Part shown: one piece after another, positions 25,128-27,237 of the stretch
Numbering within the stretch: the stretch's first letter is position 1
Layout: each line of letters begins with the position of its first letter
DNA from: Candidatus Thorarchaeota archaeon
GTDB taxonomy: Archaea; Asgardarchaeota; Thorarchaeia; Thorarchaeales; Thorarchaeaceae
Direction of reading: 5' to 3'
NCBI GenBank assembly: GCA_048882045.1
Contig: JBHLRZ010000003.1
Location: forward strand, 32,001 to 96,000
DNA: 64,000 nt
Notes under the pieces: model-generated
Databases searched by the model: none
What the model was told of the DNA's origin: nothing
Seen by the model: the letters and a program-made list of their open reading frames with translations, nothing else
Program-made: the position numbers and the translations under genes

Positions 25128-25622
25128 CTAGTATCCACGGCTGAAGTCTCGACCACCACGGCGATCGCCACGGTCTCGGTCTCTGTATCCTCCGCCACCA
25201 CGGCGGTCACGACCATAGCCCCCTCCACCTCTGTAGCGGGGTCTACTCTCGTGTTCTTCTTCAGACATATCGACCTCATCGTTGATTTCTGTGATTTCTT
25301 CCTCAGCTGGCTTTAGTGTGCCATAGCGACCAATGTTGAGTCGGAGATGTCCCTGGAACAGGGTTGTATAACCGTTCTCAAGTCGGTATGTCTTGTCAGC
25401 TTCGACTTCTTCGACCGAAGCATCCCATAGGGGGACAACCACCTTACCTGAACTGTCACCAACGACAGTGTCACACACACGGTGCTGCTCTCCATCTGCG
25501 CGGGATGTCACCTCTCTGACCTCGCCCTTTTCGATGACTTTGAACGAAATGTTCACACTCTTCATCCTTGGTTTGAGTTCAGAAATAACTGCTTCAATCG
25601 GTTCTCGCTCTTGGTAACCCAT
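25128..25622 (-). CDS. Single-OB-fold ssDNA-binding protein (crenarchaeal SSB/RPA-like) with an RG/RGG-rich tail
   Basis: VGDSSGKVVVPLWD, ENGYTTLFQGHLRLNIGRYG and the tail RGGGGYGRDRRGGGGYRDRDRGDRRGGR. Confidence 0.88.
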   Translation of the reverse strand: MGYQEREPIEAVISELKPRMKSVNISFKVIEKGEVREVTSRADGEQHRVCDTVVGDSSGKVVVPLWDASVEEVEADKTYRLENGYTTLFQGHLRLNIGRYGTLKPAEEEITEINDEVDMSEEEHESRPRYRGGGGYGRDRRGGGGYRDRDRGDRRGGRDFSRGY

Positions 25623-25795
25623 GATAACTCACGTTCACTGTGTTCTGCAGGCGTTCAAAAGTAGAATCTTCTTCAGTGATCGCAAAGCTGTGCCTGGAAC
25701 TCTGGAGCTATTGATTCAATTTGAGGGCACTGCTGTTTTTTGGATTGTCTGATTCGCCTATAAAGTCATGCACTGCCAATTTTTCCAGAACAAGG

Positions 25796-26034
25796 TGGAC
25801 GATGGCTAACGCCAAAGACTTGGTGCCCGTTTTTGGGCTCGAGGTCCACCTCGTTTTGTTTTAAACATGAGTGGTGCTCCGATGCACATCGTTGCTTCAG
25901 CATCTCCCTGAACCCAGTTGGGTGAGAGCCGAATCTCCCTGCAGACGGACATTCGTATTGCTTCTTCAACGAGCTTGCTTCATGTCCACGACTTTCAATG
26001 AAGCGGGAGCGACTTCGCGCAAGCCAATCGTCCA
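25796..26034. ncRNA. Candidate structured non-coding RNA of unknown class
   Basis: Terminal pairing TGGACGAT-GGCT (25796-25807) with AGCC-A-ATCGTCCA (26022-26034) encloses several short hairpins in a gene-free gap. Confidence 0.45.
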
Positions 26035-26160
26035 GGTTTGGTATGGAGTTTTCCTTACATAAGTGTTCTGAGTATTCCATTGATGAACTCCCCCAACTAT
26101 TCTATACTCATAGAATAACTTATAAGAAATTTCCCGGAATCCGCAGGACTGGAACCAAAG

Positions 26161-27237
26161 GTGGACCCATTGAACGGAATAAAGGTTGCAATAGTCGGCA
26201 TTGGTAATTGTGCAAGTGCACTTATACAGGGTGTAGAGTTCTATAAGGATGCCAGAGCAAACGGAGAGAACATAGGACTGGGGTATCCAGATTTTGCAGG
26301 ATATCATGTCAAAGATATTCAGTTCGTTGCAGCATTCGATGTAGCTGACACAAAGGTGGGATTTGATCTTGCAGAGGCAATCTTCGCCAAGCCAAACAAT
26401 GTGATGGCTTTTGCCAAAGTTCCTAAGACAGGTATTGAGGTCATGAAAGGTCCAGCACTTGATGGTCTGGACGAGATGCTCAAAGCACTTGTGACCGAAT
26501 CCAAGGCAAAAGATGCTGATGTTGTGAAGGTCCTCAAAGACTCAGGAGCGGAGATACTTATCAACCTCATTCCGGGTTCTGCTGAAGAAGCAACCAAGTT
26601 TTATGCAAATGCAGCCCTCGAAGCCGGATGTGCATACATCAATGGTACTCCCATCCCTATTGCCTCAGACCTTGAGTGGAGTAAGAAGTTTGAGGAAAAA
26701 GGACTTCCTCTAGTCGGAGATGATATTCAAGACCAGTTAGGTTCAACAGTTCTCCACCGGAGCATTCTACAGCTTCTTGTTTCAAGAGGAGTTAAAGTAG
26801 ATGAGAGTTACCAGCTCGACATCGGTGGTGGTGCGGAGTCAATCGATTCGCACTACAGAGGCAGGCTGAGAAAGAGGGGTGTAAAAAGCGAAGCAGTTGG
26901 ACAAGATCTACCATATGATGCCCCGATAGTTGCAGGTTCATCCGATTGGGTATCCTTCATGGATAACGCTCGTGATTCATACTTCTATATTAACGGTCGC
27001 CAGTTTGGTGGCGCACCAATCAAGATCGATATCCGCATGGAGGTCACAGATGGACCTAATGCAGGTCCCATCCTGTTGGATGCTATTAGAGGAACCAAAC
27101 TTGCGCTAAAGAGAGGTCTCAGTGGATCTTTGGAAGCAATCTCTGCCTATGGATTCAAGATGCCACCTACTCCAACCACAATGTATCGTGCTGAGAGATG
27201 GGTGGAAGAGTTCCTGCTCGGAAAACGAAAGCTATAG
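26161..27237 (+). CDS. ino1: myo-inositol-1-phosphate synthase family protein (divergent active site)
   Basis: VAIVGIGNCASALIQG, GLPLVGDDI, FGGAP, DGPNAG and DAIR motifs. Confidence 0.8.
   Translation: MDPLNGIKVAIVGIGNCASALIQGVEFYKDARANGENIGLGYPDFAGYHVKDIQFVAAFDVADTKVGFDLAEAIFAKPNNVMAFAKVPKTGIEVMKGPALDGLDEMLKALVTESKAKDADVVKVLKDSGAEILINLIPGSAEEATKFYANAALEAGCAYINGTPIPIASDLEWSKKFEEKGLPLVGDDIQDQLGSTVLHRSILQLLVSRGVKVDESYQLDIGGGAESIDSHYRGRLRKRGVKSEAVGQDLPYDAPIVAGSSDWVSFMDNARDSYFYINGRQFGGAPIKIDIRMEVTDGPNAGPILLDAIRGTKLALKRGLSGSLEAISAYGFKMPPTPTTMYRAERWVEEFLLGKRKL

Follow-up and report, generated by a model that had tools for sequence, protein, structure and literature searches.

A candidate gene for an undescribed structured RNA, placed beside ino1 in Thorarchaeia and folded under compensatory change

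A stretch of roughly 250 nt in the genome of a Candidatus Thorarchaeota archaeon very probably constitutes a free-standing, minus-strand gene for a structured non-coding RNA (running from about 26035 down to about 25785 of the window, by which we mean the whole 64,000-nt piece of contig JBHLRZ010000003.1 that was analysed). The RNA matches no catalogued RNA family and is, as far as sequence comparison tells, undescribed. Its fold is maintained across the class Thorarchaeia through compensatory changes, as read from alignments of its homologues. The RNA occurs in single copy across almost the whole of this Asgard class and has no relative in Rfam 15. It may quite plausibly act in trans as the core of a ribonucleoprotein, and the arguments for and against this reading are set out below.

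Conserved RNAs of such size and fold complexity are rare, and those found in the past have mostly been ribozymes, ribonucleoprotein cores or ligand sensors. Asgard archaea are the closest archaeal relatives of eukaryotes. The initial annotation of the window had drawn attention to an end-paired, multi-hairpin element and had proposed that it was either an undescribed structured RNA or a long leader, possibly bound by the product of the adjacent gene. In this study, we examine the extent, strand, fold and distribution of the element, its relation to neighbouring genes, and the functions that it might have.

The gap that holds the RNA gene measures 538 nt (25623 to 26160), in agreement with the ~540 nt estimated at the outset. 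It is flanked by a minus-strand gene for an OB-fold protein with an RGG tail (25128..25622) and by ino1 on the plus strand (26161..27237), which encodes myo-inositol-1-phosphate synthase. A covariance model matched the minus strand at window positions 25785-26041 (G000:C3:57785-58041) with a score of 210.9 bits, and searches of the same genome by BLAST and nhmmer found a single copy and no partial paralogues. The element forms a GC island in which GC reaches 52.9%, whereas the spacers have 38-43% and the genome as a whole has 44.2%. When the 239-nt stretch 25796-26034 was folded and compared with 200 dinucleotide shuffles, the minus strand gave -91.6 kcal/mol (z -4.61) and the plus strand -89 kcal/mol (z -3.89); on either strand, 0 of the 200 shuffled sequences folded as well. 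Flanking stretches of 257 nt folded at chance level, with z-scores of about 0 and -0.7. Judging from the promoter box and the T tract described below, the 5' end of the RNA would lie at or near 26034 and the 3' end inside the pyrimidine tract that follows the terminal helix (Table 1).

Table 1. Features of the RNA gene, in window coordinates and in the order in which the RNA would be read
Feature	Position	Strand	Basis or partner
RNA gene, ~250 nt (very probable)	25785..26035	minus	covariance-model match; single nhmmer copy
TATA-like promoter box CTTATGTA, purine-rich stretch before it	26056..26063	minus	conserved spacing
P1, 5' strand, UGGACGA then GGCUUGCGC	26017..26034	minus	pairs with 25796-25812
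P2, 5' strand, GCUCC, long-range helix	26006..26010	minus	pairs with 25876-25880
P3 hairpin, GCUUCA/UGAAGC stem	25977..26004	minus	5 of 6 pairs compensatory
P4-P5-P6 three-way junction, most conserved part	25899..25962	minus	covariation and identity
P4, AGCA/UGCU	within 25899..25962	minus	4 of 4 pairs compensatory
P5 (GAAU-G-UCC ... GGA-G-AUUC)	25929-25956	minus	95.7% paired
P6 (CUCUC-ACC ... GGU-UCA-GGGAG)	25904-25928	minus	92% paired
P2, 3' strand, GGAGC	25876..25880	minus	pairs with 26006-26010
Single-stranded joiner ACCAC-UCAYGUUCA, then A-rich linker	25854..25875	minus	conserved in the 43-homologue alignment
P8 hairpin, carries GGUGGAC	25840..25853	minus	G(A/G)GGGUGGACCUC kept in nearly all genera
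P9 hairpin, GCCC...GGGC	25825..25838	minus	3 of 4 pairs compensatory
P1, 3' strand, GCGUUAGCC then UCGUCCA	25796..25812	minus	pairs with P1 5' strand
Pyrimidine/T-rich tail CCUUGUUCUGG, terminator-like	25785..25795	minus	directly after P1

The fold is closed by P1, which pairs the two ends of the RNA, and contains in order P2, P3, a short junction helix, the P4-P5-P6 unit, the joiner, P8 and P9. Pairing and covariation were measured on a MAFFT alignment of 26 homologues that was blind to structure. In this alignment the 58 modelled pairs had 87.2% of their cells paired, as compared to 35-48% when the partners were slid by 1-3 columns. Compensatory changes, that is, changes on both sides of a pair, were found in 33 of the 58, and the covariation score of 0.300 exceeded the 0.06-0.10 of slid partners and was reached by none of 500 shuffles. 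The minimum-energy fold of this genome's single sequence agrees with P1-P6 and P9. Thus the covariation among homologues, together with the folding z-scores, bears out the proposal of a structured RNA.

The individual helices differ in how they are conserved. The terminal helix seen in the initial annotation exists, formed by UGGACGA (26034-26028) and UCGUCCA (25802-25796) and extended by the pairing of GGCUUGCGC with GCGUUAGCC. The outer GGACG/CGUCC of this helix hardly varies in sequence; covariation is seen in the inner part, and 11 of the 16 pairs in P1 have compensatory changes. P2 is paired in 99% of cells and varies by G-U only. The apical part of P3 differs among genera, and P9 is variable and is deleted in some homologues and genera. 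In the P4-P5-P6 unit, a 34-nt core shows 94% identity across genera by blastn, identity in the GUUCAG and GAAU blocks is 86% or more over 43 sequences, and one P4 pair occurs as CG (9 sequences), GC (9), UG (4) and AU (2). Three of the five inner hairpins first listed correspond to conserved helices, namely GCCC/GGGC (P9), CGAGG/CCTCG (P8) and GCTTCAT/ATGAAGC (P3); of the remaining two, GTGC/GCAC and GAGA/TCTC, neither is a conserved pairing, and their bases belong to P2, P5 and P6. The direct repeat ATCTCCCTG is present as described and corresponds to the 3' strands of P5 and P6.

No pseudoknot or long-range tertiary pair was supported among the homologues, and no supported partner for the joiner ACCAC-UCAYGUUCA was found in their alignment. 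Several candidate contacts were tried and rejected. Pairing of the P3 loop or of the P8 GUGG with the CCAC of the joiner is complementary in several genera, not in all, and the regions are unalignable. Two isolated covarying column pairs lack stacked neighbours, and pairing of the CCACC in the 3' tail with the GGUGG of P8 is uncompensated where the tail changes.

The initial annotation had left the strand undecided, and the homologues now assign it. Scored in the minus orientation, G-U pairs outnumbered A-C pairs by 128 to 43 in the structure-blind alignment of 26 sequences and by 236 to 51 among 43 homologues, and A-C pairs were no commoner than other mismatches. The RNA is accordingly a minus-strand product, and gene signals accompany it on that strand. 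In 41 of 43 homologues, a CTTATGT / CTTAATTG-type box, scored by the pattern YT[TG]AW, starts 29-31 nt upstream of the first G in P1. T-rich boxes stand at a similar upstream distance in this genome's genes for SRP RNA (TTTTTAGG) and RNase P RNA (TTTTTATTC). At the other end, the 20 nt after CGUCC average 71% pyrimidine, and a T-run-like motif is present in 39 of the 43 homologues. The element thus combines a TATA-type box at a fixed distance, a T/pyrimidine end and a covarying fold, as expected of a free-standing archaeal stable RNA gene. The SRP RNA, RNase P RNA and present RNA genes all end in (C)ACC followed by a TT.TTCT-type pyrimidine run, an ending that may serve stable RNAs of Thorarchaeia as a terminator or 3'-end signal. 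Given that this CACC...TT.TTCT ending recurs in the other two genes, terminator context is the best reading of the conserved CCACCU that follows P1.

Known identities were sought with Infernal and Rfam 15. A cmscan of the whole window with its 4227 models gave no match at the gathering score, and the gap gave none at E values up to 10. Among 20 diverse homologues, the same models returned nothing recurrent, only two unrelated chance matches with E values of 2.7 and 7.9, and the Rfam snoRNA and sRNA families matched neither the gap nor these homologues. As regards a box C/D or H/ACA guide RNA, a UGAUGA...CUGA pair noted by eye lies on the plus strand only, opposite to the RNA, and is not kept in this genus. 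Full-text searching of the literature turned up no description of this Thorarchaeia RNA. The TROVE/Ro60 domain PF05731 was not found in the genome, which is 93% complete, and control genomes gave the expected matches; a Y RNA of a Ro ribonucleoprotein was rejected on this ground.

That the element could be a familiar RNA in disguise, a mobile element or a small protein gene has some appeal: its size is SRP-like, its ends are paired, its terminal inverted repeat resembles the ends of a MITE, and it overlaps a 104-codon frame, ORF 25766..26080. Each of these identities is nevertheless most improbable. The element matches neither the SRP RNA model (RF01857) nor any RNase P/MRP model, including RF00373, and both true RNAs sit elsewhere in the genome, the SRP RNA on contig 11 (G000:C11:46113-46423) and the RNase P RNA on contig 1 (G000:C1:75143-75483, 167.4 bits); the initial annotation had likewise seen no signature of either. 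A MITE is rejected because the element is single-copy by BLAST and profile search, and it occupies the same syntenic site in nearly all loci. For the open frame, element lengths modulo 3 are spread 18/13/12 and the longest open frame shrinks to only 48-60 codons in many homologues, and the element is not coding. As an observation on the SRP RNA itself, the genome's copy is a full-length match to the archaeal model and scores 80.5 bits against a gathering threshold of 96.5, so that SRP RNA would escape standard annotation in Thorarchaeia.

The distribution of the RNA was followed with covariance models. The first model, R1, found the RNA at full length, and exactly once, in 69 of the family's 86 genomes, in 22 of the 23 high-quality genomes and in 15 of the 16 genera, while blastn alone found the core in 8 of the 16 genera. 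The sole further genome of the class, which belongs to a sister family, had no match. A second model, R2, rebuilt from 43 diverse members, gave no credible match among the 119 genomes searched from 24 other Asgard families, its one match of 20 bits being noise. Within the family, the genus g10 had the RNA in 0 of 4 genomes (83-93% complete); ino1 is present in three of these, and searches of its loci with filters off found no RNA beside it. Since the RNA is found neither in g10 nor in the sister-family genome, it is not indispensable. An exact-pattern scan of one genome per prokaryote species gave 26 records, 24 of them labelled Thorarchaeota, Promethearchaeota or other Asgard or archaeal lineages. 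The two bacterial records are chance matches, one with a partial 18.5-bit model match and the other with none, and a pattern match on a viral contig had no covariance-model match. A full-length copy of the RNA (177 bits) was observed in JBHLLF010000002.1 (L119 224-468), from a metagenome-assembled genome labelled 'Candidatus Hermodarchaeota', which suggests that the label is out of date and that the genome belongs to Thorarchaeia.

The genes around the RNA bear on whether it could be a leader, and on whether it is tied to the protein encoded next to it. In nearly all loci the RNA adjoins ino1 in divergent orientation. The distance between the two is 690-937 nt in some genera, and one such locus has an intervening ORF. 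The 3' neighbour of the RNA is an OB/RGG gene in some genera; in most, it is a CCG-domain gene whose end converges on the RNA. The initial annotation had suggested that the adjacent OB-fold/RGG protein might bind the RNA, and this is not supported. The protein belongs to a family with 4-13 copies per genome in all 87 Thorarchaeia genomes searched, some of them arranged in tandem; in the present genome, it is one of 8 matches, which extend to contig 7 (95823-97048). The 162-nt spacer upstream of the copy in the window showed no blastn similarity to any other part of the genome. A copy stands beside the RNA in some genera only, and the family is also present in g10 and in the sister family, where the RNA was not found. 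Because the family is multi-copy and occurs without the RNA too, adjacency says nothing on binding.

A cis-acting leader or riboswitch could belong to ino1, if on the plus strand, or to the OB/RGG ssb gene downstream, if on the minus strand. Such a role would suit the location of the RNA, which neighbours ino1 at nearly every locus and in some genera precedes an ssb paralogue. As an explanation it is very improbable, and the long leader proposed at first is not supported. The G-U to A-C ratio of 236:51 excludes the plus strand. The RNA gene is divergent from ino1, lies up to 937 nt away with an ORF between in places, and is separated from it by the TATA-like box and putative operator of ino1, the latter of which follows ino1 when the two genes are apart. 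As for the ssb gene, most genera have a convergent gene after the 3' end of the RNA and no ssb there, and the T/pyrimidine tract comes directly after P1.

Some further observations were made on ino1. Just upstream of its TATA-like CTTATAAG box lies a perfect palindrome, TTCTAT-N4-ATAGAA (window 26100-26115), which occurs once in the 3.6-Mb genome and recurs at 20 of the 30 representative loci. Where the RNA gene lies apart from ino1 (L072), the palindrome accompanies ino1, and it is probably the operator of a dedicated ino1 regulator. At that locus (L072 800-1500, G007:C116), the ~690 nt between ino1 and the RNA gene hold no ORF of at least 70 codons and may be decayed DNA or another non-coding element. 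In addition, ino1 homologues align from residue 4 of the GTG-start ORF (window 26158-26172), and a GAGGTG-type Shine-Dalgarno sequence stands 6-8 nt upstream of a TTG or ATG at the residue-4 position in all genera. From the alignment and this spacing, the true start of ino1 is therefore probably the TTG at 26170, not the GTG at 26161.

With these identities set aside, the size of the RNA, its multi-junction fold, its invariant nucleotides, its housekeeping-style gene layout and its near-universal single copy fit a trans-acting ribonucleoprotein core best. On this reading, the RNA would be the stable, elaborately folded product of a single-copy minus-strand gene, and its sequence-invariant parts would serve as surfaces for protein or tertiary contacts. 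Candidate surfaces are the outer GGACG/CGUCC of P1, the internal loops of P5 and P6, the GGUGGAC hairpin and the UCAYGUUCA joiner. We infer that the sequence-invariant helical blocks resemble those of protein-bound RNAs, but they could equally serve RNA-RNA contacts or catalysis. Counted against a ribonucleoprotein are the metabolic character of the genes near the RNA (ino1 and the CCG-domain/FAD oxidase pair) and the failure to find it in g10 and the sister family. The broader proposal, that the RNA is the core of a new, Thorarchaeia-specific ribonucleoprotein or ribozyme, and so a new class of RNA machine in place of a simple regulator, is advanced here as a tentative one.

Two other trans-acting roles would use the same gene differently. 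As a regulator, the RNA would base-pair with targets through one of its conserved unpaired stretches, for instance the P8 loop, UCAYGUUCA or the CCACCU tail. Both the gene's own promoter and terminator and the conserved single-stranded blocks of the RNA are compatible with this, and, in the genome studied here, the 3' tail GUCCACCUU complements the ribosome-binding region of ino1, AAGGTGGAC, over 9 nt without a mismatch. That complementarity, however, covers only a generic Shine-Dalgarno core; the GAGGTG of ino1 is constant in other genera even where the RNA tail changes (e.g. to CCCCAUC), with no covariation, and the CACC...TTCT tail also ends the SRP RNA and RNase P RNA genes. An anti-Shine-Dalgarno mimic aimed at ino1 was rejected on these grounds. 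Base-pairing sRNAs, moreover, usually need far less structure than a conserved fold of 58 pairs, and a regulator of this kind is accordingly considered unlikely. Large conserved RNAs of complex fold are often catalytic or ribonucleoprotein cores, and the RNA could instead perform chemistry of its own, with the invariant P5/P6 junction as the active site. The complex multi-junction fold would suit a ribozyme, as would the location of most invariant nucleotides in internal loops and bulges, but no Rfam ribozyme family matches, no pseudoknot or long-range tertiary pair is supported, and no substrate is evident; we regard catalysis by the RNA as improbable, and more so than regulation by base pairing.

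If the ribonucleoprotein or ribozyme proposal holds, it would add a new class of RNA machine to the cells of the archaea nearest to eukaryotes. Because the strand, approximate ends, promoter and covarying fold are in hand together with a covariance model, the RNA can be annotated in all Thorarchaeia genomes. Genes lost along with it might be sought by comparison with the genus g10, where the RNA was not found.

Among known RNAs, the archaeal SRP (7S) RNA, RF01857, is like this RNA in being single-copy, GC-rich, stand-alone, 250-300 nt long, paired at its ends and built of many helices, and the genes of both RNAs in the present genome have promoter boxes and 3' tails of one style. SRP RNA is universal, whereas this RNA is restricted to one archaeal class and has no Rfam match. 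The archaeal RNase P RNA (RF00373) shares with it a terminal helix, long-range helices, invariant junction nucleotides and the gene layout, but is encoded elsewhere, and its models do not match. Y RNA (RF00019) has a similar invariant terminal stem of both ends followed by a pyrimidine/U-rich 3' tail; this RNA is about 2.5 times larger and matches no Rfam family. A last comparison is with OLE, the raiA motif, ROOL and GOLLD, orphan large structured ncRNAs of bacteria that are all in Rfam. Unlike these, the present RNA is archaeal (Asgard), is smaller than most of them, stands in single copy beside ino1 at nearly all loci and matches none of their models. Like it, each of them was of unknown function at discovery, is restricted to particular lineages, and was defined by comparative genomics through a complex, covarying fold.
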